A stretch of DNA of 61,307 nucleotides, the filler included, from Asterionella formosa (taxonomy: Eukaryota): NCBI GenBank assembly GCA_002256025.1. It is 18 parts of 18 records of this genome, joined end to end, with 100 filler letters (N's around TTAATTAATTAA, not from the genome) between each part and the next. Parts side by side here need not be neighbours in the genome. Positions count along the whole stretch, not along the records: positions 34,150 to 37,458 come from NKIB01014252.1; 17 more parts are not named here. One strand, written 5' to 3'. Shown here piece by piece: positions 10,081 through 58,580 of the stretch (position 1 is the stretch's first letter; each line of letters begins with the position of its first letter). A program made the position numbers and the translations under genes. The notes under the pieces are model-generated. The model had not been told where the DNA came from, ran no database searches, and saw only the letters and a program-made list of their open reading frames with translations.

Positions 10081-10259
10081 AGTATACCAAATGCAGAAAC
10101 GAGCGAGCGATATGAAAATGAAATACATTCTAATCAGAATCATTCTATAACTCTAGCTANNNNNNNNNNNNNNNNNNNNNNNNNNNNNNNNNNNNNNNNN
10201 NNNTTAATTAATTAANNNNNNNNNNNNNNNNNNNNNNNNNNNNNNNNNNNNNNNNNNNN

Positions 10260-23913: not shown

Positions 23914-25489
23914 TACTATCCGGTGATTTTCGACTTTTTGTTTTAACTTATTAGATCGTGTTGGAAAAGTGAGTTAGTTGTTTCTTCCATTTCTTAATCT
24001 ACATTACGATGGATCCCTAGTAGAGTTGCTACTGACCAAATCTTGCTTGGTTGGCAGATCCTAAAACACGAATGAGATCTTTTTAAAGAAATTCGGTTGC
24101 CTCTTGAGGTTTTATTCGCTATTACTCGTATCACTTACTCGGAGTACTAGCAGTCTTCATCAAGGCAGATTTGCAAATTCAAAATCAGACCTCGCCTCTT
24201 ACAAGAACATTTCTAGACAATGGTGGTGGTGTCGCCTATTCCTTATTGGCTGGTAGCTGCCCTGCTCGGATTGTAAAGCCTAACACACGAATGAGATCTT
24301 AAAGGAGAATTCGTTCAAGTCTGGACGTATGCTCCACTTCTTTTCTAGAAATACGTAGCAGCCTTCTACAAGAGTGAGTATTTTAGAAGTAGTCCTCACA
24401 ACCTTACATACGAGAAAGTTTTCATTTGTTAAGAAGATGAGGTATGCTAAGTCTAAATATCATAGCTAGAGACAATCCAAAAGCATTACGCAGTACCTAC
24501 CTGGTATCTAAAAATACAAGGAGAATGTGAATGCATGCAAAGTTCAGGAAAACACACGCGACATTTCAACATCAAGTATTTTTATATTACTGATCTTTTT
24601 GAAAGAAAGGAAGTACAAATCAAGTACTGTCCATCGGATGCAATGTTAGCAGACTACATGACAAATCCACTGGTTGGAACGAAATTTATTCATTTTCGTC
24701 AGCAAGTTATGAATTCAAAGTGAGCATCCGTGTCCAGCAGGAGTGTGTTGGAGAAATTATTTTAGGAAAGAAAATCCCGGTATAAATTACCTACTACATA
24801 TTGAATCGAATGAATAAAAAAAAGAATATGGTACCAGAGAAAACTCAGAATTCGAAAACAATCTACGCCAACGCACAGTAAAACCCATAATTCTACTAAA
24901 ACTCTTAGGAACGATTACAATCGATTACGGAGACATCGTTGTTCATATCTACAGCCTATTTGGTCCCCGACGTGTCCTTACAGGATACAAGAAAGCATAG
25001 AGTGCTTCCGGACGCAATTTCAACAGTATATAATACCCATTGTTTTTATGATGAAATACAAATTTACATGCTGATGTCGTTATGATCGGACAATTGATAA
25101 ATGGTATTTGTTTACACTCCACTGGAACAAATAATATTATTGTTCCATTCAAAGACACTAACAGTTCAAAAGTAGCTGATGTGCTATGTACCGCAGTACC
25201 GTAGAGCCATGGATTCGTGTTTTGCTTAGGATCTACCATCCATCCATCAAGAAGAGGCGAGGTCTAATTTTGAATTTGCACGTCTTGATGAAAACTACTA
25301 GAAATAGCGATTTTAATAGAAAAGATCTCATTCGTGTTTTAGGATCTGCCAACCAAGCAAGGTTTGGTCAGTAGCAACTCTACTAGGGATCCATCGTAAT
25401 GTAGATTAAGAAATGGAAGAAACAACTAACTCACTTTTCCAACACGATCTAATAAGTTAAAACAAAAAGTCGAAAATCACCGGATAGTA
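23914..25489. repeat. 170-bp inverted repeat (23914-24083 / 25320-25489) flanking a spacer of about 1.24 kb
   Basis: The arms are reverse complements with one mismatch (24041/25362). Weaker mirror homology continues at about 24171-24200 versus 25251-25281. Confidence 0.93.
24535..24953 (+). mobile_element. Copia RNase H C-terminus with PPT and 3' LTR remnant
   Basis: SSGKHTRHFNIKYFYITD...YCPSDAMLADYMTNPL, then CAGGAGTG and the LTR start TGTTGGAG at 24746. The right end is tentative. Confidence 0.8.
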
Positions 25490-25535
25490 AGCTTTTTTTG
25501 CCTTTGCGAGAGTCAGATTGTAAGATCCTTTGACA

Positions 25536-27227
25536 ATGAACTTATTCTTGATTGTAGTGTCCACCATACTCCTCCTTCCTAATTTCACTGGAGCGGGTAC
25601 TGCGGACCTGGAATTGCTCATTGACAAGATGGAGAATGATGTACTTGAGCTCGCCGAACAAGTCGAAGAAGCCTTTCAAGATCGATGCACCACCGCTCTT
25701 AATGACTGCAGCTACAACAACTACGATAGTTGCGTTTCCCAGTTTCTAAGCCCAACATGCTATAAAAGCGATGAACTAGTAACGACTTGCAGCTCGGGTC
25801 CCAGTGACAGCTGTGCTGCCTTGTTTGACTTCAACTCTTCAAATGTGATCTTGCCCAGCGAGATTGCCGACGGCAAAGACGGCAACCCAACGAATCCACA
25901 GGTAAAGCACATGTGTTCTTTGGCTGCTAGTAGAACAGTTTCGTTTGATGTCGAAGCAGGAGTGTACTAACCTATTGGTGATTGTCCCCCTCTTTCGTAC
26001 TATATAGGTGATTGAGAGTGTATGTTACACCAGACAACTTGATAGCTTCTTTAGTCAGAAACGTCGTACTGATGCCGACTACTGGCGCTCCTTTGGAGTA
26101 GAGTCACCTCCCATGTTTTTCGGGTCACAAGAAGGAATGTTTCGTATCTTTCCTGGTCGTCACTTTGAGAATTGTGGTTCCTTTGACCCGCGAGTCCGAC
26201 CATGGTATATTGCAGCAAGCTCTGGTCCAAAAAACATTGTCTTAGTTCTTGATACATCAGGATCAATGAATTCCGGCCAAGGTCAGCGATTTGTACTTCT
26301 CAAGAAAGCAGCGATTCGGGTGATTCAGACATTAACAGTCGGCGATCGTGTTGCGATTGTTCCCTTTTCCTCGTCTTCACTCGTGATTGGCGACAGTGAA
26401 GGTCGCATGCTGACTGCGAATGCGGAAAACAAAGCAATTCTTGTTGACGCCATAAATGGTCTTGTGGCTGAAGGGAGTACCAACTTCTATGCCGCCCTTG
26501 GAAGTGCCTTTGACACTATGGATAAAACCATCGCGGCAGAGCTTCACAACAACTGCAACTCTGCCGTTCTTTTCCTGACCGATGGTGAAATGACAGATCC
26601 TCCAGGTGTGACAGAGCAGGATGTCATTGAGCTAGTTACAAACAGACTCAACGCAACCATGCAGTCCAGTGGTAAGCCCATCCTCTTTTTCACTTACAGC
26701 ATCGGCACTGCAAATGAAAATGTTCACAAATTCCCAAAGGAGCTTGCCTGCTCCACTGAATTGGGCGTTTGGTCCAAGATTGATGATGAGAGCAAGCTGT
26801 TCGAGAGTCTAACGTCCTACTATCGACTATTTGCCCTTGGACTTGGCAACAAGGGTGCTGTAGCTTGGGTGGAGCCTTACAACTTCGCCACTGGTGGCGT
26901 CGTTGGTACCACAGTGTCAGCACCTGTCTACGATCGTAATCATAATCCTCCTCTTTTCTTGGGTGTGGTTGGCATGAATTTTCCTTTGAATGCTATCAAT
27001 AAGGCTTTGGGCTCTGAAGCCGGGAATCAACAAGCCGCCATCGATCGAATTGTGAAAGCTTCGACTGCCAATTGCCCTTCGTTGAACCTGACTCTTTGTG
27101 AACTGGAATCATTTCGTCGTCTCAGCTCTGCTGGTGATGAAGCGATTTGTGATCTAAGCGCTTGCAACGCTAGTGACTTTGTTCAAGTTGAGGCCACCAA
27201 ATGCCCTTCGGTTTCTGATTATCCACA
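25536..27227 (+). CDS. VWA and Cache domain protein (alpha2delta/CACHD1-like), paralog of 10260-12506, 3' partial
   Basis: ATG at 25536 with a signal peptide. Intron 25902-26007 sits at the same position as in the paralog (NPQ|VIES). FDPRVRPWY, MIDAS DTSGS and FLTDG are present. Confidence 0.9.
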
Positions 27228-27327: not shown

Positions 27328-30300
27328 TGACACCAGTTACCTCCTGGGCATGCAATGACGTGTGGCACCGAATCCAGGTCAATGTTTAGTGATATATTTG
27401 TTTGGTTTCACCTCCCATGTATTCGAGGGGACTGAACGAATATTGCAGTGCAGTGTGGGCGCATGGGTGCTCGTACCATGTCATATGGTACAGTGTACTC
27501 GAATAAATACGCTAGTGTGGTCAGCAGAACAACTTACATGGTGCACAAGGAAAGAAAGATAAAGGTTGAAAAGATAGACTTAAAGATACATATACCTACT
27601 CCGCATTCTCTGCTCCAAGCTTGCACGCTGTACTATCGCGAAAGCACTCTAACGGCTAGTTAGTACCCTGAACTGTATGACACGGTACGCTCACCCACGC
27701 GCCCATACTGCACTGCAATATTCGTTCAGTCCCCTCGAATACATGGGAGGTGAAACCAAACAAATATATCACTAAACATTGACCTGGATTCGGTGCCACA
27801 CGTCATTGCATGCCCAGGAGGTAACTGGTGTCATAGGTTGTGACATCGCGATGAACCTTGGCTTCAATCTTCGACCCACTGTGATCCAACAGCCATCAAT
27901 ACATGAACTTGTCGCACAAATACTCTCGTGTAATTTGGGGTAATGGCTTCGTCAGCACATCAGCCAAATTAGTCTTTCTATCTTCCTTCGTTACCCGAAT
28001 CATCCCTGCCGCCACAGCTTCTCTCGCTCTGTGATACACTATCGCATTATGTTTCTTTTTCAAAGTCGATTCTGGATGAATCGTGTTCTTCGTCACCGCC
28101 TCGTTGTCGCAGAAAACGTTAGTTGGTCCATCGATTGGGATTCCAAACATTCTCAGCTTATACCTCAATGCCTCGATCAGTTCGACCGAGATCTTCAAAG
28201 CCACAAATTCGCTACCAAATGTCGATGTCTCGACAGTGTTCTGTCGCTTACTGTACCATATAATTGGAGCCCGATTCACAAAAATCAGTATCCCGGTCTG
28301 CGAGCGCCTCGTCACCCGATTCCCCGCATGATCCGCATTCACAAAACAGTGAGTAGTTACAACATTACCTCTGGGCTTGGGTGCGTCCCCTGGAATAGAC
28401 TCCTGCGCTCCCCTGTAAAAGTCGTGCCAATCGCATTTAACAAACCTGGACTCGTTTATATTGGGTTGTATCGGATCAAAGATCAATGTCCTCTTGGGTT
28501 TCGCTTTCAAATATCCGAACATGTGATATACCTGTTGTAAGTGTCCGCTCCTCGGCAACGCTAGGTGAGTAGATAACATAGAAACTTCCATAGCAATGTC
28601 TATTCGTCCAAGCTCCACTGCCCAGCGGAGCACGCCGATCAATTCCTGGTAGTATCTCACGCCTTCAATCTTGAGTTTGGCAGAAGTATCCAGCTCCGGT
28701 CTATAATTCCCCTGCAATGGGGTAGTGCACCTCGTTGGAAGCCGCTAACCCGACTCGTCGAGTTTGAGCTCTACGTTGGCGATGGCCGCCTTGACATACT
28801 GCTCAGAAGTCATGGCCCAACATTCAACTCCGCCGACTATTTTCTGCATTACCTGGGCTCCCAGGTAATTTTCCGGCTTCTCGACTTTATCGTCCTTCCA
28901 TTTGAAGGTCGACTGTATCCTCGCTAAAGGCTGCGCTGAAATGCAAAGAATGTCATCAACATATACAAGAATCATTTCGTGATACTCAAAACCATCCTGT
29001 TTTACCGCCGGTCGAATCCATACATCAGGGTCCCCTTTCGTGGGCAAGTAACCCAAATCATGGAGGGTTTATGCGAGATGCGCTCTGAATGCCGCACCGC
29101 TAGATTTGAGCCCATACAGCGCTTTCTTCACCACCATGGTAGCTCCCGCTTCCGACCCAAATTCCGGCCCTGCAATTATGTAAATTTTCTCTCTGCAATC
29201 TGCGGTTAGATAAGCGTTTTGAATATCGCAAGCAAGAAGTTGTAAGTCGTTCAATGAAGCAACCAATAAGGCAATGCGCACTGAGTCCCTCGACACAACT
29301 GACGAATACGTCAGGGCTGCGGGCGTTTCCGTCCGGCTGCCGTCAGCAACTAGTCTCGCCTTACGCCGAAAGTTTTCGCCCATTTTGATGTCGAACACGA
29401 AATGACACCTTATCTTTTGGTACCCTGGCGGAAGGTCTCCCTCTCGCTTTTCCCACTTTTCAAATGCCGGTCGCACGTTTTTCATTTCCTTGCAGATGGC
29501 GTCCCACCATAATGTGTTGCCATTGGCTTTATCAATCGCTAACGCCTCTTCGACGGACTTCGGTATCCGTATACCGTATTTGTGAGTTCGCTGCCAATAC
29601 TTAGACTTTACCTTCGCTAGGACTCGGTCCTGTTTCTTTAGAAGAGTCGGCACCCACCATGCAAACGCCGCCTCGTCATCAATACGATTAGCAATTGAGT
29701 ACTCCGCCACCTGTATGGGGTACGATTGCTTCATATCCTTAAGTGCAACCCAAGTGGTACTCTCATCCCTCCATTAGCACAGGAGTTGCCACCCTTGAGT
29801 CGTCTGTCTCCGCCGCTTGACACCGGTAGACATTGTGATGAACGCGTCCTCTTTGTCAAGTGCCGTCGCATTCCGCCTATGATCGATAATGTCGTCGAGA
29901 AGTACGTGTCGTTCGCCCTCCTCGTCTATCTGTGAAAACAAATTCTGAGCAATAAGGTCAGAGGACAATGCCTCTGAGTGTCCGTCAAGGAACTCGACCT
30001 CATACTCTCTGGTGTCAAGCAAAGGATTTTCGTGAGCCTTGCCGATAGGTCTACCATCGGCGTCGCGCAATCTCTTGGTGACTCTGCCAAATTGAACACC
30101 GTCGTTGTCATCTCCAGCGCCCCTCGCTATCGCTATCGCTATCTCTTTGTTGAGGTATGTATCCTCGAAAATATCGGGCGTGAAAGTGTCATCGGCATCT
30201 GGTATTTGGTGATCGCTCACAACAATTTTTATCTCTTCGCCGAATACTGAATCGTCCTGCAGATCCGAGTATTCCTCCCAATCCTGCAATTGTTGCTCCT

Positions 30301-30638
30301 CCTCGTCGCCTGCATTTTGGTGGTTGTCGTCACGCATGATTTCCTTTATCCTCTCATTGTACTCCTTGCATCTGTCGTTGACCTCGCTAGTTGTCAGTTC
30401 AAGGTGATTGATATGCTGCACTGTAGTGCGTGAGATAACGCGACAAGCAATGGTTAGAATCCAATACGACATTAGGTTACCGACTCGGTGAGACACAACA
30501 AGCCAGCGCTTGAACATGTTTTCGCCAACCCCTGCATTATCCTTGTACCACACCCAATCGTAGAACCCGAAATCCAAGTATTCGGATATGTTGGGTGTCG
30601 CGCCTGTGATCTGCTCTATAGGAGTCCGACCTTCCAGC
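27328..30638 (-). mobile_element. CoDi-type Ty1/Copia 3' half (IN C-terminus, RT, RNase H, PPT, LTR) with inverted 3' end, copy 1
   Basis: IN tail TPNISEYLDFGFYDW; RT motifs RKARLVA, DIQNAYL, KALYGLK and YVDD; RNase H STFGSEF and NLADVLTK. One reading frame with three internal stops and no frameshift. Inverted repeat arms at 27328-27485 and 27676-27833. Confidence 0.95.
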
Positions 30639-34149: not shown

Positions 34150-37100
34150 GCTGGAAGGTCGGACTCCTATAGAGCAGATCACAGGCGCGACACCCAACAT
34201 ATCCGAATACTTGGATTTCGGGTTCTACGATTGGGTGTGGTACAAGGATAATGCAGGGGTTGGCGAAAACATGTTCGGGTGCTGGCTTGGTGTGTCTCAC
34301 CGAGTCGGTAACCTAATGTCGTATTGGATTCTAACCATTGCTTGTCGCGTTATCTCACGCACTACAGTGCAGCGTATCACTCACCTTGAACTGACAACTA
34401 GCGAGGTCAACGACAGATGCAAGGAGTACAATGAGAGGATAAAGGAAATAATGCGTGAAGACAACCACCAAAATGCAGGCGACAAGGAGGAGCGACAATT
34501 GCAGGATTGGGATGAATACTCGGATCTGCAGGACAACTCAGTATTCGGCGAAGAGATAAACAATGTTGTTTAATCACCAAATACCAGATGCCGATGACAC
34601 TTTCACGCCCGATATTTTCGAGGATACATACCTCAACAAAGAGATAGCGATAGCGATAGCGAGGGGCGCTGGAGATGACAACGACGGTGTTCAATTTGGC
34701 AGAGTCACCAAGAGATTGCGCGACGCCGATGGTAGACCTATCGGCAAGGCTCACGAAAATCCTTTGCTTGACACCAGAGAGTATGAGGTCGAGTTCCTTG
34801 ACGGACACTCAGAGGCATTGTCCTCTGACCTTATTGCTCAGAATTTGTTTTCACAGATAGACGAGGAGGGCGAACGACACGTACTTCTCGACGACATTAT
34901 CGATCATAGGCGGAATGCGACGGCACTTGACAAAGAGGACGCGTTCATCACAATGTCTACCGGTGTCAAGCGGCGGAGACAGACGACTCAAGGGTGGCAA
35001 CTCCTGTGCTAATGGAGGGATGAGAGTACCACTTGGGTTGCACTTAAGGATATGAAGCAATCGTACCCCATACAGGGGGCGGAGTACTCAATTGCTAATC
35101 GTATTGATGACGAGGCGGCGTTTGCATGGTGGGTGCCGACTCTTCTAAAGAAACAGGACCGAGTCCTAGCGAAGGTAAAGTCTAAGTATTGGCAGCGAAC
35201 TCACAAATACGGTATACGGATACCGAAGTCCGTCGAAGAGGCGTTAGCGATTGATAAAGCCAATGGCAACACATTATGGTGGGACGCCATCTGCAAGGAA
35301 ATGAAAAACGTGCGACCGGCATTTGAAAAGTGGGAAAAGCGAGAGGGAGACCTTCCGCCAGGGTACCAAAAGATAAGGTGTCATTTCGTGTTCGACATCA
35401 AAATGGGCGAAAACTTTCGGCGTAAGGCGAGACTAGTTGCTGACGGCAGCCGGACGGAAACGCCCGCAGCCCTGACGTATTCGTCAGTTGTGTCGAGGGA
35501 CTCAGTGCGCATTGCCTTATTGGTTGCTTCATTGAACGACTTACAACTTCTTGCTTGCGATATTCAAAACGCTTATCTAACCGCAGATTGCAGAGAGAAA
35601 ATTTACATAATTGCAGGGCCGGAATTTGGGTCGGAAGCGGGAGCTACCATGGTGGTGAAGAAAGCGCTGTATGGGCTCAAATCTAGCGGTGCGGCATTCA
35701 GAGCGCATCTCGCATAAACCCTCCATGATTTGGGTTACTTGCCCACGAAAGGGGACCCTGATGTATGGATTCGACCGGCGGTAAAACAGGATGGTTTTGA
35801 GTATCACGAAATGATTCTTGTATATGTTGATGACATTCTTTGCATTTCAGCGCAGCCTTTAGCGAGGATACAGTCGACCTTCAAATGGAAGGACGATAAA
35901 GTCGAGAAGCCGGAAAATTACCTGGGAGCCCAGGTAATGCAGAAAATAGTCGGCGGAGTTGAATGTTGGGCCATGACTTCTGAGCAGTATGTCAAGGCGG
36001 CCATCGCCAACGTAGAGCTCAAACTCGACGAGTCGGGTTAGCGGCTTCCAACGAGGTGCACTACCCCATTGCAGGGGAATTATAGACCGGAGCTGGATAC
36101 TTCTGCCAAACTCAAGATTGAAGGCGTGAGATACTACCAGGAATTGATCGGCGTGCTCCGCTGGGCAGTGGAGCTTGGACGAATAGACATTGCTATGGAA
36201 GTTTCTATGTTATCTACTCACCTAGCGTTGCCGAGGAGCGGACACTTACAACAGGTATATCACATGTTCGGATATTTGAAAGCGAAACCCAAGAGGACAT
36301 TGATCTTTGATCCGATACAACCCAATATAAACGAGTCCAGGTTTGTTAAATGCGATTGGCACGACTTTTACAGGGGAGCGCAGGAGTCTATTCCAGGGGA
36401 CGCACCCAAGCCCAGAGGTAATGTTGTAACTACTCACTGTTTTGTGAATGCGGATCATGCGGGGAATCGGGTGACGAGGCGCTCGCAGACCGGGATACTG
36501 ATTTTTGTGAATCGGGCTCCAATTATATGGTACAGTAAGCGACAGAACACTGTCGAGACATCGACATTTGGTAGCGAATTTGTGGCTTTGAAGATCTCGG
36601 TCGAACTGATCGAGGCATTGAGGTATAAGCTGAGAATGTTTGGAATCCCAATCGATGGACCAACTAACGTTTTCTGCGACAACGAGGCGGTGACGAAGAA
36701 CACGATTCATCCAGAATCGACTTTGAAAAAGAAACATAATGCGATAGTGTATCACAGAGCGAGAGAAGCTGTGGCGGCAGGGATGATTCGGGTAACGAAG
36801 GAAGATAGAAAGACTAATTTGGCTGATGTGCTGACGAAGCCATTACCCCAAATTACACGAGAGTATTTGTGCGACAAGTTCATGTATTGATGGCTGTTGG
36901 ATCACAGTGGGTCGAAGATTGAAGCCAAGGTTCATCGCGATGTCACAACCTATGACACCAGTTACCTCCTGGGCATGCAATGACGTGTGGCACCGAATCC
37001 AGGTCAATGTTTAGTGATATATTTGTTTGGTTTCACCTCCCATGTATTCGAGGGGACTGAACGAATATTGCAGTGCAGTATGGGCGCGTGGGTGAGCGTA

Positions 37101-37458
37101 CCGTGTCATACAGTTCAGGGTACTAACTAGCCGTTAGAGTGCTTTCGCGATAGTACAGCGTGCAAGCTTGGAGCAGAGAATGCGGAGTAGGTATATGTAT
37201 CTTTAAGTCTATCTTTTCAACCTTTATCTTTCTTTCCTTGTGCACCATGTAAGTTGTTCTGCTGACCACACTAGCGTATTTATTCGAGTACACTGTACCA
37301 TATGACATGGTACGAGCACCCATGCGCCCACACTGCACTGCAATATTCGTTCAGTCCCCTCGAATACATGGGAGGTGAAACCAAACAAATATATCACTAA
37401 ACATTGACCTGGATTCGGTGCCACACGTCATTGCATGCCCAGGAGGTAACTGGTGTCA
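34150..37458 (+). mobile_element. CoDi-type Copia 3' half with inverted 3' end, copy 2
   Basis: Same as copy 1 plus a 2-bp frameshift near 34570. Stops at 35010, 35715 and 36039, terminal TGA at 36888-36890, PPT-like GAGGGGAC, then TG at 37058. Confidence 0.95.
36953..37458. repeat. 158-bp inverted repeat (36953-37110 / 37301-37458) with a 190-bp loop
   Basis: The outer 127 bp are perfect; the inner 31 bp carry 5 mismatches. Each arm covers the 3'UTR, the PPT and the first 53 bp of the LTR. Confidence 0.95.
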
Positions 37459-37558: not shown

Positions 37559-40500
37559 GCTGGAAGGTCGGACTCCTATAGAGCAGATCACAGGCGCGAC
37601 ACCCAACATATCCGAATACTTGGATTTCGGGTTCTACGATTGGGTGTGGTACAAGGATAATGCAGGGGTTGGCGAAAACATGTTCGGGCGCTGGCTTGGT
37701 GTGTCTCACCGAGTCGGTAACCTAATGTCGTATTGGATTCTAACCATTGCTTGTCGCGTTATCTCACGCACTACAGTGCAGCGCATCACTCACCTTGAAC
37801 TGACAACTAGCGAGGTCAACGACAGATGCAAGGAGTACAATGAGAGGATAAAGGAAATAATGCGTGAAGACAACCACCAAAATGCAGGCGACAAGGAGGA
37901 GCGACAATTGCAGGATTGGGATGAATACTCGGATCTGCAGGACAACTCAGTATTCGGCGAAGAGATAAACAATGTTGTTTAATCACCAAATACCAGATGC
38001 CGATGACACTTTCACGCCCGATATTTTCGAGGATACATACCTCAACAAAGAGATAGCGATAGCGATAGCGAGGGGCGCTGGAGATGACAACGACGGTGTT
38101 CAATTTGGCAGAGTCACCAAGAGATTGCGCGACGCCGATGGTAGACCTATCGGCAAGGCTCACGAAAATCCTTTGCTTGACACCAGAGAGTATGAGGTCG
38201 AGTTCCTTGACGGACACTCAGAGGCATTGTCCTCTGACCTTATTGCTCAGAATTTGTTTTCACAGATAGACGAGGAGGGCGAACGACACGTACTTCTCGA
38301 CGACATTATCGATCATAGGCGGAATGCGACGGCACTTGACAAAGAGGACGCGTTCATCACAATGTCTACCGGTGTCAAGCGGCGGAGACAGACGACTCAA
38401 GGGTGGCAACTCCTGTGCTAATGGAGGGATGAGAGTACCACTTGGGTTGCACTTAAGGATATGAAGCAATCGTACCCCATACAGGTGGCGGAGTACTCAA
38501 TTGCTAATCGTATTGATGACGAGGCGGCGTTTGCATGGTGGGTGCCGACTCTTCTAAAGAAACAGGACCGAGTCCTAGCGAAGGTAAAGTCTAAGTATTG
38601 GCAGCGAACTCACAAATACGGTATACGGATACCGAAGTCCGTCGAAGAGGCGTTAGCGATTGATAAAGCCAATGGCAACACATTATGGTGGGACGCCATC
38701 TGCAAGGAAATGAAAAACGTGCGACCGGCATTTGAAAAGTGGGAAAAGCGAGAGGGAGACCTTCCGCCAGGGTACCAAAAGATAAGGTGTCATTTCGTGT
38801 TCGACATCAAAATGGGCGAAAACTTTCGGCGTAAGGCGAGACTAGTTGCTGACGGCAGCCGGACGGAAACGCCCGCAGCCCTGACGTATTCGTCAGTTGT
38901 GTCGAGGGACTCAGTGCGCATTGCCTTATTGGTTGCTTCATTGAACGACTTACAACTTCTTGCTTGCGATATTCAAAACGCTTATCTAACCGCAGATTGC
39001 AGAGAGAAAATTTACATAATTGCAGGGCCGGAATTTGGGTCGGAAGCGGGAGCTACCATGGTGGTGAAGAAAGCGCTGTATGGGCTCAAATCTAGCGGTG
39101 CGGCATTCAGAGCGCATCTCGCATAAACCCTCCATGATTTGGGTTACTTGCCCACGAAAGGGGACCCTGATGTATGGATTCGACCGGCGGTAAAACAGGA
39201 TGGTTTTGAGTATCACGAAATGATTCTTGTATATGTTGATGACATTCTTTGCATTTCAGCGCAGCCTTTAGCGAGGATACAGTCGACCTTCAAATGGAAG
39301 GACGATAAAGTCGAGAAGCCGGAAAATTACCTGGGAGCCCAGGTAATGCAGAAAATAGTCGGCGGAGTTGAATGTTGGGCCATGACTTCTGAGCAGTATG
39401 TCAAGGCGGCCATCGCCAACGTAGAGCTCAAACTCGACGAGTCGGGTTAGCGGCTTCCAACGAGGTGCACTACCCCATTGCAGGGGAATTATAGACCGGA
39501 GCTGGATACTTCTGCCAAACTCAAGATTGAAGGCGTGAGATACTACCAGGAATTGATCGGCGTGCTCCGCTGGGCAGTGGAGCTTGGACGAATAGACATT
39601 GCTATGGAAGTTTCTATGTTATCTACTCACCTAGCGTTGCCGAGGAGCGGACACTTACAACAGGTATATCACATGTTCGGATATTTGAAAGCGAAACCCA
39701 AGAGGACATTGATCTTTGATCCGATACAACCCAATATAAACGAGTCCAGGTTTGTTAAATGCGATTGGCACGACTTTTACAGGGGAGCGCAGGAGTCTAT
39801 TCCAGGGGACGCACCCAAGCCCAGAGGTAATGTTGTAACTACTCACTGTTTTGTGAATGCGGATCATGCGGGGAATCGGGTGACGAGGCGCTCGCAGACC
39901 GGGATACTGATTTTTGTGAATCGGGCTCCAATTATATGGTACAGTAAGCGACAGAACACTGTCGAGACATCGACATTTGGTAGCGAATTTGTGGCTTTGA
40001 AGATCTCGGTCGAACTGATCGAGGCATTGAGGTATAAGCTGAGAATGTTTGGAATCCCAATCGATGGACCAACTAACGTTTTCTGCGACAACGAGGCGGT
40101 GACGAAGAACACGATTCATCCAGAATCGACTTTGAAAAAGAAACATAATGCGATAGTGTATCACAGAGCGAGAGAAGCTGTGGCGGCAGGGATGATTCGG
40201 GTAACGAAGGAAGATAGAAAGACTAATTTGGCTGATGTGCTGACGAAGCCATTACCCCAAATTACACGAGAGTATTTGTGCGACAAGTTCATGTATTGAT
40301 GGCTGTTGGATCACAGTGGGTCGAAGATTGAAGCCAAGGTTCATCGCGATGTCACAACCTATGACACCAGTTACCTCCTGGGCATGCAATGACGTGTGGC
40401 ACCGAATCCAGGTCAATGTTTAGTGATATATTTGTTTGGTTTCACCTCCCATGTATTCGAGGGGACTGAACGAATATTGCAGTGCAGTATGGGCGCGTGG

Positions 40501-40867
40501 GTGAGCGTACCGTGTCATACAGTTCAGGGTACTAACTAGCCGTTAGAGTGCTTTCGCGATAGTACAGCGTGCAAGCTTGGAGCAGAGAATGCGGAGTAGG
40601 TATATGTATCTTTAAGTCTATCTTTTCAACCTTTATCTTTCTTTCCTTGTGCACCATGTAAGTTGTTCTGCTGACCACACTAGCGTATTTATTCGAGTAC
40701 ACTGTACCATATGACATGGTACGAGCACCCATGCGCCCACACTGCACTGCAATATTCGTTCAGTCCCCTCGAATACATGGGAGGTGAAACCAAACAAATA
40801 TATCACTAAACATTGACCTGGATTCGGTGCCACACGTCATTGCATGCCCAGGAGGTAACTGGTGTCA
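37559..40867 (+). mobile_element. CoDi-type Copia 3' half with inverted 3' end, copy 3
   Basis: Differs from copy 2 by only a few SNPs (GRW vs GCW, IQVA vs IQGA). Arms at 40362-40519 and 40710-40867. Confidence 0.95.
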
Positions 40868-40967: not shown

Positions 40968-43900
40968 TGACACCAGTTACCTCCTGGGCATGCAATGACG
41001 TGTGGCACCGAATCCAGGTCAATGTTTAGTGATATATTTGTTTGGTTTCACCTCCCATGTATTCGAGGGGACTGAACGAATATTGCAGTGCAGTGTGGGC
41101 GCATGGGTGCTCGTACCATGTCATATGGTACAGTGTACTCGAATAAATACGCTAGTGTGGTCAGCAGAACAACTTACATGGTGCACAAGGAAAGAAAGAT
41201 AAAGGTTGAAAAGATAGACTTAAAGATACATATACCTACTCCGCATTCTCTGCTCCAAGCTTGCACGCTGTACTATCGCGAAAGCACTCTAACGGCTAGT
41301 TAGTACCCTGAACTGTATGACACGGTACGCTCACCCACGCGCCCATACTGCACTGCAATATTCGTTCAGTCCCCTCGAATACATGGGAGGTGAAACCAAA
41401 CAAATATATCACTAAACATTGACCTGGATTCGGTGCCACACGTCATTGCATGCCCAGGAGGTAACTGGTGTCATAGGTTGTGACATCGCGATGAACCTTG
41501 GCTTCAATCTTCGACCCACTGTGATCCAACAGCCATCAATACATGAACTTGTCGCACAAATACTCTCGTGTAATTTGGGGTAATGGCTTCGTCAGCACAT
41601 CAGCCAAATTAGTCTTTCTATCTTCCTTCGTTACCCGAATCATCCCTGCCGCCACAGCTTCTCTCGCTCTGTGATACACTATCGCATTATGTTTCTTTTT
41701 CAAAGTCGATTCTGGATGAATCGTGTTCTTCGTCACCGCCTCGTTGTCGCAGAAAACGTTAGTTGGTCCATCGATTGGGATTCCAAACATTCTCAGCTTA
41801 TACCTCAATGCCTCGATCAGTTCGACCGAGATCTTCAAAGCCACAAATTCGCTACCAAATGTCGATGTCTCGACAGTGTTCTGTCGCTTACTGTACCATA
41901 TAATTGGAGCCCGATTCACAAAAATCAGTATCCCGGTCTGCGAGCGCCTCGTCACCCGATTCCCCGCATGATCCGCATTCACAAAACAGTGAGTAGTTAC
42001 AACATTACCTCTGGGCTTGGGTGCGTCCCCTGGAATAGACTCCTGCGCTCCCCTGTAAAAGTCGTGCCAATCGCATTTAACAAACCTGGACTCGTTTATA
42101 TTGGGTTGTATCGGATCAAAGATCAATGTCCTCTTGGGTTTCGCTTTCAAATATCCGAACATGTGATATACCTGTTGTAAGTGTCCGCTCCTCGGCAACG
42201 CTAGGTGAGTAGATAACATAGAAACTTCCATAGCAATGTCTATTCGTCCAAGCTCCACTGCCCAGCGGAGCACGCCGATCAATTCCTGGTAGTATCTCAC
42301 GCCTTCAATCTTGAGTTTGGCAGAAGTATCCAGCTCCGGTCTATAATTCCCCTGCAATGGGGTAGTGCACCTCGTTGGAAGCCGCTAACCCGACTCGTCG
42401 AGTTTGAGCTCTACGTTGGCGATGGCCGCCTTGACATACTGCTCAGAAGTCATGGCCCAACATTCAACTCCGCCGACTATTTTCTGCATTACCTGGGCTC
42501 CCAGGTAATTTTCCGGCTTCTCGACTTTATCGTCCTTCCATTTGAAGGTCGACTGTATCCTCGCTAAAGGCTGCGCTGAAATGCAAAGAATGTCATCAAC
42601 ATATACAAGAATCATTTCGTGATACTCAAAACCATCCTGTTTTACCGCCGGTCGAATCCATACATCAGGGTCCCCTTTCGTGGGCAAGTAACCCAAATCA
42701 TGGAGGGTTTATGCGAGATGCGCTCTGAATGCCGCACCGCTAGATTTGAGCCCATACAGCGCTTTCTTCACCACCATGGTAGCTCCCGCTTCCGACCCAA
42801 ATTCCGGCCCTGCAATTATGTAAATTTTCTCTCTGCAATCTGCGGTTAGATAAGCGTTTTGAATATCGCAAGCAAGAAGTTGTAAGTCGTTCAATGAAGC
42901 AACCAATAAGGCAATGCGCACTGAGTCCCTCGACACAACTGACGAATACGTCAGGGCTGCGGGCGTTTCCGTCCGGCTGCCGTCAGCAACTAGTCTCGCC
43001 TTACGCCGAAAGTTTTCGCCCATTTTGATGTCGAACACGAAATGACACCTTATCTTTTGGTACCCTGGCGGAAGGTCTCCCTCTCGCTTTTCCCACTTTT
43101 CAAATGCCGGTCGCACGTTTTTCATTTCCTTGCAGATGGCGTCCCACCATAATGTGTTGCCATTGGCTTTATCAATCGCTAACGCCTCTTCGACGGACTT
43201 CGGTATCCGTATACCGTATTTGTGAGTTCGCTGCCAATACTTAGACTTTACCTTCGCTAGGACTCGGTCCTGTTTCTTTAGAAGAGTCGGCACCCACCAT
43301 GCAAACGCCGCCTCGTCATCAATACGATTAGCAATTGAGTACTCCGCCACCTGTATGGGGTACGATTGCTTCATATCCTTAAGTGCAACCCAAGTGGTAC
43401 TCTCATCCCTCCATTAGCACAGGAGTTGCCACCCTTGAGTCGTCTGTCTCCGCCGCTTGACACCGGTAGACATTGTGATGAACGCGTCCTCTTTGTCAAG
43501 TGCCGTCGCATTCCGCCTATGATCGATAATGTCGTCGAGAAGTACGTGTCGTTCGCCCTCCTCGTCTATCTGTGAAAACAAATTCTGAGCAATAAGGTCA
43601 GAGGACAATGCCTCTGAGTGTCCATCAAAGAACTCGACCTCATACTCTCTGGTGTCAAGCAAAGGATTTTCGTGAGCCTTGCCGATAGGTCTACCATCGG
43701 CGTCGCGCAATCTCTTGGTGACTCTGCCAAATTGAACACCGTCGTTGTCATCTCCAGCGCCCCTCGCTATCGCTATCTCTTTGTTGAGGTATGTATCCTC
43801 GAAAATATCGGGCGTGAAAGTGTCATCGGCATCTGGTATTTGGTGATTAAACAACATTGTTTATCTCTTCGCCGAATACTGAGTTGTCCTGCAGATCCGA

Positions 43901-44270
43901 GTATTCATCCCAATCCTGCAATTGTCGCTCCTCCTCGTCGCCTGCATTTTGGTGGTTGTCTTCACGCATTATTTCCTTTATCCTCTCATTGTACTCCTTG
44001 CATCTGTCGTTGACCTCGCTAGTTGTCAGTTCAAGGTGAGTGATACGCTGCACTGTAGTGCGTGAGATAACGCGACAAGCAATGGTTAGAATCCAATACG
44101 ACATTAGGTTACCGACTCGGTGAGACACAACAAGCCAGCGCTTGAACATGTTTTCGCCAACCCCTGCATTATCCTTGTACCACACCCAATCGTAGAACCC
44201 GAAATCCAAGTATTCGGATATGTTGGGTGTCGCGCCTGTGATCTGCTCTATAGGAGTCCGACCTTCCAGC
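40968..44270 (-). mobile_element. CoDi-type Copia 3' half with inverted 3' end, copy 4
   Basis: Carries the 2-bp frameshift, lacks one 6-bp unit (IAIARG) and shares KRWLVV with copy 1. Arms at 40968-41125 and 41316-41473. Confidence 0.95.
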
Positions 44271-51186: not shown

Positions 51187-53200
51187 ATTGTTGATGGGGA
51201 CACCATCAGCTACATAGGATTCGTAATTGATACTGAAAGCAATGATGACATTTCTTTTTCAGTTGTTGATACAAGAAAAATGGCTCCTGTCGATGATACC
51301 ATTAATAACTCCCGGATGCAGATGGACGACATGGTACCATATCATAAATTTTCTAATTGCACGGACCAACACGTACATGACAAACTGAGGGAAAAACATT
51401 TTGCACTTGCCAAAGGATATTATCAATTGGTCAATGAACTCAATCACTACAAAGGTTGAAATTCGGTTCAAAACTCGTCCATACGAGGTTATCAAGAATA
51501 TTCAATTTCAGCAGCCTTATCAGAACGTCGTTCCCGCTTAGCTAAAATTGAACCATCAATTGTCACAAAGGTTGTGAGTTTCATTTTCAAGACCAAGAAT
51601 TTTTGCTGTGAACGTGTAAGTTTGATGTTATAGTTTGTGAATCATTGCAGGTACTTTAAAACAGAATATCAATCTAATGTGCTTTTTTCTGGTCCCAAAA
51701 GAGAATCAAACATCCAGCCCTGCCTATCTGGTCCAAGTAGTATGAAAGGTATTTCCAATCACAAACAGGATTGGTTTGCCCAATGTTGACCTGCCTAACT
51801 TGGCTATACACAGTGAAACCGGAGTTAGGCAAAGAAGTGGAGAGTGACCCAGAGCTTGCCGATTTCATATGGAATGGTTCTGATGCACTTCTTCCGATGA
51901 ATCAGACCATTGAACGTACCAACAAGGCATGTTTAGATTACATCAAATCAACAATTGGCATGTGCATTAAAAAGTTGAGAGAATGTCAGAATGTATTGAA
52001 TAATCAATTTAAAGGAATCTTAGGTAAGTTCTTGCAGGGAGATGCTCTGAAAGCATGACGTTTTGAGTCGGTGATTATATTCTTATCAAATATGTTTCAA
52101 TTTAAAAATGCTAAAATAATTCATGACATACCAGCTGGTCTAAGAGAATATAGCTAACTTTCAAACTATGGATATTGATGACTTTATGAGGTGGGCGTTC
52201 ACGCTTTATCGTTTTGCGCAGTCAAAGGACATTGACAGGGGAGGCCAAGGCTACCAATACTGGCGTGATGTTCTTGCTTCATTCATTTTTGCATCACGGA
52301 TTTTACCATGAAAACATCAGTTGAGAGAATGTCAGAATGTATTGAATAATCAGTTTAAAGGAATCTTAGGTAAGTTCTTGCAGGGCGGGAGATGCTCTGA
52401 AAGCATGATGTTTTGAGTCGGTGATTATATTCTTATCAAATATGTTTGAATTAAAAGTGCTAACATAATTCATGACACACCAGCTGGTCTAACAGAATAT
52501 AACTTCCAGACTATGGATGTTTATGACTTTATTATGTGAGCGTTCACGCTTTATCGTTTAGCGCAGTCAAATGACATATACAGGGGAAGCCAAGGATACC
52601 AAGTCTGGCGTGATGTTCTTGCTCCAGTGTATTTTATAGGAAGGACAAGCCGTGGAGAACCGTTTTTAACAGGAGAAAATCTGGTGTGACCAAATTTCAA
52701 CTAAGTCTTGGGGAACAGTGTGAATTGCAATCACGTTTTGTTGGTTCGCTGATCAATGCCAGTACAGAAGCCTTTTGCTTCTTGGTGCTGAAAGGAAAAT
52801 TCCGATTGCAACAAAAATATTTGGGTTTCAATCCAGATACTACGCATGAAATTTCAGAGAACGATATTCGTCATTCCACTGATTCTGTCGACATTGGTGG
52901 GAAACCACTTATCAAAAAAGTGTGAGGGAAGAAAGTTCAGTTTCAAATGGTCTCACTGATCAATGAACTGATGATAATGATTTACTCGGTTATTATAAGG
53001 AAATCTACACTGGACTTTCTCAAAAGAATCGATCGGAATATGGAAGGAATCCTAGTGGAATTGCTACTTCCACAACAAATATCATCTACCCACACTCATA
53101 CTTGTTCTCATTTCCCAATGTAAGTGAAGAGGATATGTGTCAATATGTTGAACCACTTCAACCAAATGTTCCTGAGAAGAATATTGATTACAATGAACGC
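51187..53200 (+). repeat. Decayed multi-copy element shared with two other contigs
   Basis: About 51193-51339 matches 9525-9679, and about 51452-51627 matches the reverse complement of about 58615-58790. Only broken ORFs remain. Confidence 0.7.
51973..52624 (+). repeat. Direct duplication of about 305 bp
   Basis: AGTTGAGAGAATGTCAGAATG...CTGGCGTGATGTTCTTGCT at about 51973-52279 and 52319-52623. Confidence 0.9.
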
Positions 53201-54806
53201 ATGAATCAACGGGACATTGATGACGACTTTGATTTTGAATGGATCTAATAGAATCCAATGCATGCTTAGTAGTTACATAATAAATATAGTTAGTGTGAGA
53301 CTTCTACAATGCACAAACCATATCATAGATGTTAGGAAAACATTGATGTTGGTCTATACTACTAGTAGTGCCGCCTGTACTGTATGTAGCGGTATACCTC
53401 CATTTTTACTACTATGGTGGAGTGATAATTTCACGACTCTGTATTGTCCAGCACAGCATGATCGGAGTGATGCTAAATTTATCATTATATATTCATTCAT
53501 TTTCATTCTATCCTGTTCATTTCCTGACTTTGTCATCATTTGAAATTTGCAATGTCTTTGCGGACATTGCAATGGTGTTATCTGCATAACTACAAATTTC
53601 GGAAGAACAAATCCCCATCTGAGTCTCACAACCGAAATTGTAGCAACCGTGTTTTCTATGCATATGGTCACTGTCGACATTGCATGCAAGAACATCGAGT
53701 TCCTGTAATACATAATGAAACTATGTATTGCGGTAGTGCGCGCATCGAATCATTCAAGGAAAGAAGTTAATGGCAGTGTAACTGCTGCAGCATTTAGGGA
53801 GAGTAGACAACAAGAAGAGATTATGTGTCCTATCCTTGAATCAAGTGGCCACAATCATCCATTTCATGACGACAGCGACGATTCAGTTTATAACAATATT
53901 CAGTAACAACAAGACAAACAATTGAGACTAATACCTCTCCAAGGATTGAATTCAGAAACCATGCAATATACAGTTTTTCAAGATCATACCTGCTTTCTCC
54001 CTGAAAATGCAATGGAAATGCCCCTTCCTCGGCTCCTCAATTTCAACATCCAAGTAAGCATTCTCTAAACATACGCGCATCCAATCGAATTAGAACTCAT
54101 GATATTCCTTAACGAGAACTACCTACCTTCCACCAGTTTACTTTGATCATCTAATGAAATGGCTGTTCAAGGCAAAAGCAATGAAATATTTTGATGGAAG
54201 GTATCAAGCTCCATCCTACCAGACTTTGAAAAAACGCATACTTTATGATTGATTTATTGATTTTCTATGATGTATCGATAACACTTACGTACATATTTTA
54301 TCGTATTTTATTATCATTGTATTATCTTAACACGATCATATTTTTTTGATCAAACTTTTATCATGAACATTCTAAGAAATCATCATAGTTCTATGATCAA
54401 TGTATCATCGCTATGTGATATACTTTATTCAATATTATGTATAATACTTTGGTGATGTATGCATCGATGTAACCCTATCGTGATATCACATTANNNNNNN
54501 NNNNNNNNNNNNNNNNNNNNNNNNNNNNNNNNNNNNNTTAATTAATTAANNNNNNNNNNNNNNNNNNNNNNNNNNNNNNNNNNNNNNNNNNNNACCCGAA
54601 TATCCGGGGTTTCAAGATTCCTTAAAAACGCGGGAAAATAATTTGACACCTGGAATATGATCGAAAGATGATGAGAACAAACTGTTCAAACACTATCCTT
54701 GCCGATCAAGGCGCTCGTGCGTATCATTGCGTTGCTCGACGTCCTCCTGAAGATTCATCTCATGCGTTCGATGACGATACCCGCAATTAACATAAAGCGA
54801 GCGAAA

Positions 54807-57533: not shown

Positions 57534-58200
57534 GGTGACGACAAGCAATTCGCAAAGATCCTAGAGCAGTGCATCATGTCAACAAATACCGCTACCGGTA
57601 TATAAATTCACGTGAGGCATCATCGTGACCATCAGCCATCAAGCGGCGGAATGCTGTTCCTCGGCGGTTCCCTATGCAGGCAGCAGCAGGAAATTCCCCG
57701 ACGCAGGCGAAACTGGATTGCTTCCACGTGGAAGCACTATTGTCCAATGATCGCTCAGTTTTTGAATATACAGTACGGTACAGTATTAGTTCCGCCCCCC
57801 CCATCGAAATTCTTCAACACGCACGACCTGCCACAGAGAGCACCTGGCACCACCATTACATTTCGGCCTTCGTTGACACTGGAAAGAGTAGGGCCTAATT
57901 NNNNNNNNNNNNNNNNNNNNNNNNNNNNNNNNNNNNNNNNNNNNTTAATTAATTAANNNNNNNNNNNNNNNNNNNNNNNNNNNNNNNNNNNNNNNNNNNN
58001 GTAATAACCTACATAACATGAAAACTGGGAAGAGGGAGCTTTTTTACCGGTAAGTGTGAGTTCTTCATGTGATGTGTACAACCGTAAAACTTTGATCTCA
58101 GATGGATGACATTAGACACCACAAATATCCTTACTATTTCATTAAGTAAAATGCGTGTTGTGAATGTATTAGCCTCAAGAGCAGGATCTTGGTTGAACTT

Positions 58201-58580
58201 TCAAATGAATTATTTGAAACATCAACTAATTCAGTCTTGCGTTCAAAATTCATTGTGAAAACTTCACATGAAACCGTTAAAAGTAACCTTTTTACGTGAA
58301 GAGTGGCATTAATGCATGTGAAGTACCACATAATTAACACTCGTACGTAAACGAAATTTCGAAAAGTCAAATGAATTATTTGAAACATCAACTAATTCAG
58401 TCTCGCGTTCAAAATTCATTGTGAAAACTTCACATGAAGCAGTTAAAACTTCACATGAAACCGTTAAAAGTAATGTTTTTTACGTGAAGAGTGGCATTAA
58501 TGCATGTGAAGTACCACATGATTAACACTCATACGTAGACGAAATTTCGAAAAGTGGCGTATTTCGCGGCTTAGATGTAG
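58201..58580 (+). repeat. Tandem duplication of about 166-188 bp, ending in a candidate transposon terminus
   Basis: Units at 58201-58366 and 58367-58554, then CGCGGCTTAGATGTAG at 58565-58580. The same 13-mer core occurs at 17203-17215. Confidence 0.75.

Follow-up and report, generated by a model that had tools for sequence, protein, structure and literature searches.

Tail-to-tail Copia 3′ ends in the diatom Asterionella formosa, probably formed by antisense insertion of one family member into another

The window and the left Copia element

The window, the whole stretch of DNA that was analysed, comprises 61,307 nucleotides of the Asterionella formosa assembly GCA_002256025.1. It is a chain of 18 contigs of 3303–3322 nt each, separated by linkers of 44 N, TTAATTAATTAA, and 44 N. 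The contig at positions 34150–37458 (NKIB01014252.1) carries the 3′ part of a Copia element on the plus strand and, at its right end, part of a second, inverted element. The neighbouring contigs hold ordinary diatom genes, and 8 of the 11 ORFs scanned on other contigs matched ordinary eukaryotic Pfam domains.

The left element begins with a pol fragment (34150–36890, plus strand) covering the integrase C-terminus, reverse transcriptase, and RNase H, as delineated by an RVT_2 match and by alignment to relatives. The RVT_2 domain (PF07727) was matched with E = 1.9e-12 and 47.8 bits, against a cut-off of 31.6, and was found in 120 of the 120 homologues listed; the named homologues came from the diatom Fragilaria crotonensis. 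The fragment shares 83% amino acid identity with full-length relatives of 1139–1356 residues, the integrase region being included in this alignment. The contig start aligns upstream of the reverse transcriptase in these relatives, and the order of integrase, reverse transcriptase, and RNase H was recognised by eye; a Pfam search of the ORF pieces of pol named no integrase domain and no RNase H domain. The named diatom homologues and the diatom-like host genes mark the left and right elements as diatom Copia elements that are putatively CoDi-like.

The pol frame, which closes with a TGA at 36888, is interrupted by in-frame stops at 35010 (TAA), 35715 (TAA), and 36039 (TAG), where the relatives have Q, E, and Q. 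A 2-nt deletion lies near 34569 in the path 34150–37458, and three of the four assembled paths described below have a 2-nt deletion. In contigs from the public runs X1 and X7, two of the stop sites (35010 and 35715) are occupied by CAA and GAA, and most of the X1 depth consists of sense codons there. The first-pass annotation had described pol as dead. This description holds for the assembled path, with its three in-frame stops and the deletion in three of four paths; it is qualified by X1, which is mostly sense at two of the three sites. A ciliate-type genetic code was suggested by the stops, all TAA or TAG, by the terminal TGA, and by the Q, E, and Q of the relatives. It was discarded because other contigs contain standard-code ORFs of 335–595 residues, 8 of the 11 scanned having ordinary Pfam matches, because the host is a diatom, and because sense codons stand at two of the sites in X1 and X7.

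Downstream of pol, the 3′UTR of the left element spans 36891–37049 on the plus strand, and its segment 36953–37049 forms the outer portion of the left arm of an inverted repeat. The PPT, GAGGGGAC, occupies 37050–37057 on the same strand and abuts the LTR start.

Boundaries of the LTR

The complete 3′ LTR of the left element (37058–37286, plus strand) is 229 nt long and reads TG...CG, as established by relatives and by contigs from public runs. Its start at 37058 was set by two contigs (runs X1 and X7) with differing, unrelated letters upstream of this position. At the other end, forward homology to the metagenome relatives L001, L009, L054, and L002 breaks off at 37284–37286. Past this point, L001 and L054 have a PBS-like stretch, (C/T)GGTTTATCAGACCC, directly after the LTR end, L009 has unrelated DNA, and the L002 contig stops. 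Six contigs of X1 and one of X7 have GTTTATCAGACCC next after 37286, and the PBS-like stretch directly follows the LTR end in both runs; X7 also has another flank after 37287. A tRNA gene search of the window found none. The contig contains one LTR (the 3′ LTR), which ends in CG, the usual end being CA. The relative L001 assembles into a circle-like contig that has a single LTR and whose ends overlap by 107 nt.

These dimensions can be set beside the description of CoDi elements by Maumus et al. (2009, PMC2806351), which concerns the same superfamily and host group. The 229-nt LTR lies inside the range of 153–844 bp given there, and one-LTR assemblies of relatives, at about 6.4 kb, place the element size inside the CoDi range of 5.2–8.1 kb. 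TG/CA ends are given for 23 of 26 described CoDi families, in contrast to the TG...CG found here.

The 296-nt TG...CA segment between the two PPTs had been interpreted as a single LTR-like unit with a PPT on either side, one per strand. That interpretation is not supported, since the LTR finishes at 37286 in the relatives and in the X1 and X7 contigs. By these alignments, the segment is a composite of the full 229-nt LTR and the inverted 67-nt LTR start of another copy. A snap-back model, which makes the 296-nt segment a single LTR bounded by 67-nt terminal inverted repeats and lets its 3′ end fold back and prime, was likewise rejected, because the LTR of the relatives ends at 37286 and no right arm is present there.

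The second element and variation within the family

The sequence to the right of 37286 belongs to the minus strand. In the family alignment, 37287–37353 corresponds to LTR positions 1–67 of a second family member, whose LTR is cut at position 67 and would be the insertion target. They are followed by the PPT of this element (37354–37361, minus strand), the reverse complement of 37050–37057, and by its 3′UTR (37362–37458, minus strand), the reverse complement of the left 3′UTR, which is ended by the contig end. The view that two Copia 3′ ends face each other was borne out, in that PPT, LTR start, and 3′UTR are present on both strands; GAGGGGAC followed directly by TGAACGAATATTG (PPT and LTR start) was found in the contig, as was its reverse complement. 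With an inverted PPT and 97 nt of 3′UTR beyond the LTR piece, the right arm is also, as had been proposed, part of an element with internal sequence.

Conservation is unequal along this part of the family. Over the 3′UTR and PPT (36953–37057), six family members are identical at 100–105 of 105 positions. LTR positions 1–22 agree at 22 of 22 in all 15 family pairs, and positions 23–67 at just 36–45 of 45. Over positions 23–67, the right LTR piece matches the left copy at 36 of 45 and the metagenome relatives at 36–38 of 45, and it has bases in common with the relatives that are absent from the left copy; the piece is therefore assigned to a different copy. Position 67 is crossed uninterrupted in all five other family copies aligned.

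Both arms have three CpG-type changes in the 3′UTR in common, relative to four relatives. The window lineage has 55 private changes; C>T or G>A accounts for 31 of these, and 22 of the 31 lie at ancestral CpG. Three nonsense codons and this CpG-decay spectrum give the assembled path the look of a copy that has long resided in a chromosome. Run X1 was the best match to the element (0.77 of sampled words), and the RNA runs X18–X23 shared 0.13–0.17. X1 contained 6921 contigs at ≥95% on 3.2 kb and thus a large swarm of variants of the family; its depth is a sum across contigs that is inconsistent between neighbouring places.

The inverted repeat and its assembly

A repeat search placed the arms at 36953–37124 and 37287–37458, each 172 nt long, 95% complementary, and 162 nt apart. 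LTR positions 1–67 (37058–37124) make up the inner portion of the left arm, and positions 68–229 constitute the 162-nt “loop” (37125–37286). Nine mismatches, at offsets 128, 136, 143, 144, 151, 159, 160, 163, and 167 from the outer end of the arm, all lie within the inner 45 nt, and the outermost 127 nt are mismatch-free. The arms of 158 nt reported earlier, perfect over the outer 127 nt and with five mismatches in the inner 31, were recounted with the same outcome (offsets 128, 136, 143, 144, and 151). Folded as RNA, the inverted repeat has a computed energy of −357.1 kcal/mol (z = −31.1), a stability that none of 100 shuffles reached. The inverted repeat is well beyond chance expectation.

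The right arm finishes on the last base of the contig, the N linker starting at 37459, and forms the terminal 127 + 45 nt; counted inward from that end, the mismatches begin at offset 128. The terminal 127-mer (37332–37458) is the reverse complement of 36953–37079. At the end of an unrelated contig, the first inverted-repeat mismatch likewise falls at offset 128. The repeat is borne by four contigs (34150–37458, 37559–40867, and, in reverse complement, 27328–30638 and 40968–44270), which have common start and end points. They are alike over the first 127 nt, first differ at nt 128, have 30 differing alignment columns, all in the first 928 nt, and are identical over the final 2381 nt. These contigs are alternative graph paths through one terminal sequence. 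The presence of the structure in all four assembled copies had been noted as if it were replication; contigs that are identical across their last 2381 nt give no independent sightings. The suspicion that the figure of 127 nt reflects an assembler k-mer, on the other hand, gained support from three independent k = 127 signatures, namely the shared contig starts and two unrelated contig ends.

A de Bruijn assembler working at k = 127 would run through the LTR end of the inserted element into the inverted target, and the path would halt once its final 127-mer was the reverse complement of a 127-mer already used. This stop rule is taken to explain both why the outer arm is perfect over 127 nt and why the contig ends where it does. 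The known behaviour of de Bruijn assemblers backs the k = 127 reading, alongside the contig signatures; in the literature on assembler-made inverted contig ends, nothing was found that directly addresses the stop behaviour of SPAdes.

The fall of identity toward the loop had been taken as a sign of gene conversion between the arms. Unrelated family members show the same profile, to which the stop rule adds, and gene conversion is not needed, because the fall matches the family-wide conservation profile. The distribution of mismatches, with 0 in 127 nt versus 9 in 45, is uneven, an imbalance for which the family profile and the stop rule account, although conversion between the arms may have contributed. 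As a path through a graph of many variants, the contig could be a mosaic, and the nine arm mismatches are therefore no strict proof of two molecules.

A probable antisense nested insertion

The arrangement probably arose on a chromosome, when the 3′ LTR of one family member received an antisense insertion of another member. Integration would have occurred 67 nt from the start of the target LTR, in the opposite orientation, and integrase acting in the chromosome would have made the join. The two 3′ ends (3′UTR, PPT, and LTR start) would then face each other across the remainder of the inserted element's LTR, and the right arm would extend into a longer element beyond the contig end. The join is located at the exact 3′ terminus of the LTR, as independently set by the relatives and by the X1 and X7 contigs. 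Identical arms would be expected from a templated fold-back or from an event within one molecule; the differences between the arms therefore favour a nested insertion. When the target is rebuilt from the family alignment, the join appears to be free of microhomology. Given the ordinary diatom genes on the surrounding contigs and the swarm of family variants in X1, nested hits are to be expected in such a genome.

Searches for further views of the junction were of limited reach. Among the contigs listed from public runs over 34150–37330, none bridged 37286/37287 and none had a strand-changing joint; the stretch reaches just 44 nt past the join (X1 contigs, about 90 nt), and this evidence is neutral. 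The exact junction string had 0 matches in viral_contigs and genome_contigs, and the PPT with the LTR start had 0 in viral_contigs; a diatom is unlikely to occur there, and these results carry no weight. A second insertion junction with a target-site duplication was absent from the 18 contigs of the window.

Maumus et al. (2009, PMC2806351) describe diatom Copia elements that have inserted into other TEs, and an antisense self-nested insertion is described for the Arabidopsis Copia element EVD (PMC11624286). As in A. formosa, EVD lies inside a copy of its own family, in the opposite orientation, with LTR and internal sequences inverted. For EVD, both junctions and a target-site duplication were obtained from read pairs, and the LTRs are 1.9–2.6 kb apart, whereas the present case offers one junction, a target that is the 3′ LTR, hit 67 nt from its start, facing parts 162 nt apart, and a diatom host.

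Alternative origins

An in-vitro chimera (from the library, from amplification such as phi29/MDA, or from ligation) or an assembly error, retained by the assembler at deep coverage, is an unlikely source of the join. The structure stands at a contig end with no bridging reads among the contigs listed, and the very high summed contig depth of X1, with its thousands of variant contigs, could have allowed rare chimeric molecules to attain assembling depth. Among 80 loci, L021 (68% amino acid identity to the query) has an inverted self-join at a 4-nt microhomology. MDA chimeras resemble the present structure in their inverted join and short intervening stretch within a short-read assembly, and in the account of Lasken and Stockwell (2007, PMC1855051) more than 85% of 475 were inverted joins. 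The joins described there fall at arbitrary places, are mainly intramolecular, and have 2–21 nt of complementarity at more than 70% of junctions. None of these marks (arms from one molecule, an arbitrary join, and 2–21 nt of complementarity) was found here. Instead, the join is at the exact LTR terminus, where a random strand switch would not land, it connects different copies whose arms differ at 9 of 45 positions, and microhomology appears to be lacking. A low-k misjoin would require a k-mer common to the LTR end and to the inverted LTR near position 67, and none seems to be present; a k = 127 path across the join demands real 128-mers. A misjoin through a 22-nt perfect stretch was considered and rejected, as this stretch lies away from the true join and the two sides of 37286/37287 have no k-mer in common. 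The exact LTR terminus would also suit an extrachromosomal product, in which a cDNA integrated, through its LTR end, into retrotransposon cDNA, either into itself (an autointegration inversion circle) or into another molecule. Within the contig, such a product is indistinguishable from a nested insertion, because k = 127 is shorter than the 163 nt from target to terminus. SISYPHUS products of Arabidopsis, in which the 3′ LTR is contiguous with an inverted portion of the element, have exactly this form, with the LTR end running directly into inverted sequence of its own family (PMC7197481), and the A. formosa family, very abundant in X1 and with mostly sense codons at 35010 and 35715, is possibly active. 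The inversion circles of that report are extrachromosomal and intramolecular and have identical arms, as any product of one cDNA would, whereas the present arms disagree at 9 of 45 positions and each carry CpG-type changes of their own (in a contig that is possibly a mosaic), and the nonsense codons and CpG-decay spectrum appear typical of a resident genomic copy. An extrachromosomal origin is considered very improbable.

The first-pass annotation had raised a different interpretation, in which a maintained palindrome or dimeric element, homogenised by arm-to-arm conversion, serves as a natural source of hairpin RNA that silences the family in trans. Mu killer of maize is a natural inverted transposon duplication that silences its family. 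An inverted duplication of transposon sequence is likewise present here, with 172-nt arms up to the contig end, and could yield hairpin RNA; an RNA crossing the region is predicted to form a stem of at least 127 perfect bp. Mu killer, however, is a rearrangement of a DNA transposon with a demonstrated transcript, siRNAs, and heritable silencing, and the present locus is at most a candidate. The three 3′UTR changes common to both arms and missing in four relatives would fit homogenised arms. In P. tricornutum, genes are silenced by inverted-repeat transgenes, and of the small RNA reads derived from repeats, 98% are reported to map to LTR retrotransposons (PMC4247016). Hairpins from nested or inverted TE copies have been proposed as a silencing trigger, and the nested EVD insertion is discussed as a possible source of hairpins or convergent transcripts (PMC11624286). 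Against a maintained palindrome stand the composite nature of the segment between the PPTs, which is more than one LTR, an identity gradient accounted for by the family-wide profile and the stop rule, and the collapse of the four “copies” into a single path, and we regard it as quite unlikely. The small poly-A RNA run X24, which shares its sample with X1, gave 0 contigs on the element, a result with no bearing on transcription. If a nested insertion is assumed, one might speculate that dsRNA arises from read-through of the left element or from read-out of its 3′ LTR into the antisense target. If the join is real and the right arm runs on as a long, near-identical inverted copy, the locus would be a kilobase-scale Copia palindrome, and dsRNA from read-through or from the intact 3′ LTR promoter would seed 25–30-nt small RNAs and CpG methylation restraining the very abundant CoDi-like family. 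This proposal is very improbable; if true, the locus would be a natural “Mu killer” in a diatom.

Biological meaning

The analysis bears on how such assemblies are read. Windows can be chains of short contigs, and neighbouring contigs that are nearly identical can be different routes through the assembly graph instead of separate copies. When a contig ends in a perfect repeat, inverted or direct, of exactly k bases, this is an assembler mark, and an identity gradient in a TE repeat should first be compared with the conservation profile of the family itself.

The tail-to-tail Copia arrangement is ordinary. It has little biological significance: a TE-rich diatom genome is expected to contain an abundant retrotransposon in nested, inverted copies, and the locus is at most a candidate source of dsRNA, like many nested inverted loci. 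LTR, PPT, and PBS-like landmarks are now set for an undescribed diatom Copia family that is widespread in freshwater and marine metagenomes.

Structure of the inverted repeat

A repeat search of the window identified two arms, 36953-37124 and 37287-37458, each of 172 nt and 95% complementary to one another, with 162 nt between them. The 127 perfectly paired nucleotides and the 5 mismatches in the following 31 nt described in the first-pass annotation were reproduced, and the arms proved 14 nt longer than its figure (172 instead of 158 nt). The mismatches lie, numbering inward from the outer end, at offsets 128, 136, 143, 144, 151, 159, 160, 163, and 167, and similarity stops past offset 172. 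The predicted RNA fold of the region has an energy of -357.1 kcal/mol (z = -31.1), and none of 100 shuffles was equally good. The repeat occupies the 3′ end of contig 34150-37458, where an N linker begins at 37459.

The LTR boundaries were established from related elements. Use of the RNase H end to search metagenome contigs yielded 80 loci, including four close relatives: L001 (96.5% DNA identity over 3.1 kb), L002, L009, and L054. The window's forward homology with each of them extends from pol across the 3′UTR and PPT into the LTR start and ends at 37284-37286, and 37287-37458 matches them solely as the reverse complement of their 3′UTR/LTR start. Past ...TATTTATTCG, L001 and L054 run into (C/T)GGTTTATCAGACCC, which is primer-binding-site-like, and then into a 5′ leader and gag; L009 continues into unrelated DNA, and L002 reaches its contig end. 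Among contigs from two public sequencing runs (X1 and X7), different unrelated letters precede 37058 in two contigs (X1, X7), the continuation past 37286 is GTTTATCAGACCC in six contigs of X1 and one of X7, and another flank follows 37287 in one X7 contig. These branch patterns at 37058 and 37286 are those of LTR boundaries, thus defining an LTR of 229 nt (37058-37286), which lies inside the 153-844 bp given for diatom Copia-like LTRs in PMC2806351. Its termini are TG...CG, not TG...CA; the same paper describes TG/CA as absent from 3 of 26 diatom Copia-like families. At 37183-37184 the left LTR is missing 8 nt found in all four close relatives (a GCGCTAGAA-type insert), and X7 contigs break there, in accord with this difference. 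The closest relative, L001, is a 6463-nt contig with a single LTR, the ends of which (1-109 and 6357-6463) overlap directly by ~107 nt, and in many other loci of 6.3-6.9 kb the pol end is found at varied positions; such elements apparently assemble into "circles" with one LTR, as a result of either collapsed LTRs or real circular DNA.

The 296-nt "TG...CA segment" had been interpreted as a single LTR between two PPTs, a view that the LTR end at 37286 contradicts: the segment consists of the complete LTR (37058-37286) and, joined at its exact terminus, the inverted first 67 nt of the LTR of another copy (37287-37353). Beyond 37353, a PPT and 97 nt of 3′UTR follow, both inverted, as far as the contig end. 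The proposed tail-to-tail arrangement of Copia copies is borne out, as the inverted LTR start, PPT, and 3′UTR face the left, plus-strand element. Across LTR positions 23-67, the inverted piece is identical to the left copy at 36/45 positions and to relatives from other metagenomes at 36-38/45, and has bases in common with relatives that the left copy lacks; being no closer to the left copy than to the relatives, it therefore belongs to a different copy. LTR position 67 is uninterrupted in all five other copies aligned, indicating that the inverted copy is the interrupted partner.

Falling identity toward the "loop" between the arms had been offered as a case for gene conversion. A conservation profile of six sequences (15 pairs) gave 100-105/105 identities for the 3′UTR and PPT, 22/22 in every pair for LTR 1-22, and 36-45/45 for the CpG-rich stretch LTR 23-67. 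This family profile, sharpened by the assembler stop rule discussed below, suffices to explain the drop. The 3′UTRs of both arms have in common three CpG-type changes that are missing from four relatives, which could equally reflect gene conversion or a shared local subfamily.

Assembler signatures

The same 3.3-kb sequence is present as four contigs, 34150-37458, 37559-40867, 27328-30638 (reverse), and 40968-44270 (reverse), with common start and end bases. Their 30 differing alignment columns all fall in the first 928 nt, the earliest at nt 128, and their final 2381 nt are identical, so that the palindrome's presence in "all four copies" amounts to one observation. The unrelated contig 23914-27227 begins with a 170-nt inverted copy of its own internal segment (arms 23914-24083 and 25320-25489, 99.4% identical), and the sole mismatch is found, counting from the contig end, at offset 128. 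The four-path divergence at nt 128 and offset 128 at two unrelated ends are three independent marks of a k=127 de Bruijn graph, as the first-pass annotation had surmised from the perfect 127-nt arm. In such a graph, paths have one 127-mer vertex in common at a branch, and a path stops when its final 127-mer repeats, in reverse complement, a 127-mer used before; this rule forces both the perfect pairing over the outer 127 nt and the mismatch at offset 128. De Bruijn assemblers collapse isolated variant bubbles, while dense variants survive as parallel paths, which would account for the confinement of four-path differences to places where variants are closer than k. X1 carries many variant positions throughout the element, also over the stretch on which the four paths are identical. 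The arms on contig 23914-27227 may belong to a further inverted structure, likewise TE-related and truncated by that rule; an ORF between them (24466-24723) resembles, by eye, the C terminus of a Copia-type pol.

Origin of the palindrome

An ordinary antisense nested insertion, cut off by the assembler, is the best explanation of these data and probably the correct one. In this simplest account of the palindrome, the left element would have inserted antisense within the 3′ LTR belonging to a second member of its family. The arrangement is like that documented in PMC11624286 for EVD of Arabidopsis, a Copia element inserted antisense into a copy of itself, and PMC2806351 reports other TEs interrupted by diatom Copia elements. 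A second insertion junction and target-site duplication were not found among the window's 18 contigs. Public-run contigs were aligned to 34150-37330, a stretch chosen to make any fold-back visible as a strand-changing joint, and no contig bridging 37286|37287 was among the minority listed after filtering (X1 contigs being ~90 nt).

Two other origins were considered. A chimera formed during MDA or library preparation could account for the inverted join at the contig end, the element being very deeply covered: X1 gave 6921 contigs of at least 95% identity over 3.2 kb, from a 514-million-letter run, with summed depths of hundreds of thousands that are inconsistent between neighbouring places. In that sample the Copia family is either exceptionally abundant or exceptionally rich in variants. 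However, MDA joins, as characterized in PMC1855051, occur at arbitrary places, are mostly intramolecular, and mostly use 2-21 nt of complementarity, whereas this join sits at an LTR terminus, links different copies, and has no visible microhomology, making a chimera unlikely. Less probable still is an autointegration inversion circle. Such a product, whose 3′ LTR runs directly into part of the element in inverted orientation (PMC7197481), has the right form and is compatible with a k=127 contig, but the arms differ and the assembled path is decayed. Snap-back and low-k misjoin models were dropped once the LTR end at 37286 was established.

Inverted self-junctions seem to be recurrent in assemblies of these Copia elements. 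Two of the 80 loci, L021 and L028, both from a related Copia family (66-68% amino acid identity), have one downstream of pol. The L021 join (1-453/1465-1917) is at a 4-nt GCAT microhomology ~10 nt before its family's LTR end. L028 has a perfect 110-nt arm reaching the contig end (488-597/1682-1791), and the two ends of a further locus, L027, share a 65-nt inverted match.

Other contigs of the window

The window strings together short contigs of a fragmented assembly and is not a single genome stretch: its 18 contigs (3303-3322 nt each, GC 37% to 48%) are sorted from longest to shortest and joined by 44 N + TTAATTAATTAA + 44 N, and features spanning or abutting a linker are not genomic context. 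Internal direct repeats, 85-90% identical with units of ~90-350 nt, occur on three contigs (8845-9214, 51973-52623, and 58201-58555). Contigs 6843-10159, 51187-54493, and 58001-61307 show mutual 153-225-nt matches of 89-90% identity; these repeats and matches probably represent a further repeat, of dispersed or satellite type. Two proteins with a von Willebrand factor type A domain (PF13519, E ~1e-14) are encoded on different contigs at 10638-12080 (minus strand) and 26008-27225 (plus strand), and may be paralogues or alleles.

Coding capacity and decay of the element

The plus strand of 34150-37458 encodes a Copia-type pol (RVT_2, E=1.9e-12) with 83% protein identity to full-length metagenome polyproteins of 1139-1356 aa; the named homologues among the matches listed are from the diatom Fragilaria crotonensis. 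The assembled path contains in-frame stops at 35010 (TAA), 35715 (TAA), and 36039 (TAG), before a terminal TGA at 36888, and 2 nt are missing near 34569 in three of the four paths, the frame being intact in the fourth. At the three stop sites nine relatives have Q (7/9) or E (2/9), E (9/9), and Q (9/9), respectively. The confinement of in-frame stops to TAA/TAG, with TGA as terminator, mimics a ciliate-type code. Such a code was ruled out by standard-code ORFs of 335-595 aa on other window contigs, by ordinary eukaryotic Pfam domains in 8 of 11 ORFs scanned (VWA, WD40, GPR180/TMEM145, UBX, Asp/Arg hydroxylase, and others), by a GPR180-like protein whose named relatives are diatoms only, and by X1 and X7, which mostly carry C at 35010 and G at 35715, giving the sense codons CAA and GAA in most letters. 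The stop-bearing path is therefore a minority variant.

Private changes of the window lineage, defined as sites at which L001 and L002 share a state that it lacks, number 55 over 34150-37286; 31 are C>T or G>A, 22 of these at an ancestral CpG, and L002 has a similar spectrum (38/74 C>T or G>A). A CpG bias of this kind would be expected if the copy were resident, methylated, and decaying, with the caveat that several copies may be mixed in a mosaic contig. The spectra of the window lineage and L002 suggest methyl-CpG decay of silenced copies.

The first-pass annotation had proposed a hairpin-RNA silencer. According to PMC4247016, genes of P. tricornutum have been silenced by inverted-repeat constructs, and 98% of its repeat-derived small RNA reads fall on LTR retrotransposons; by analogy, such a role for the putative locus would be reasonable in kind, though improbable.
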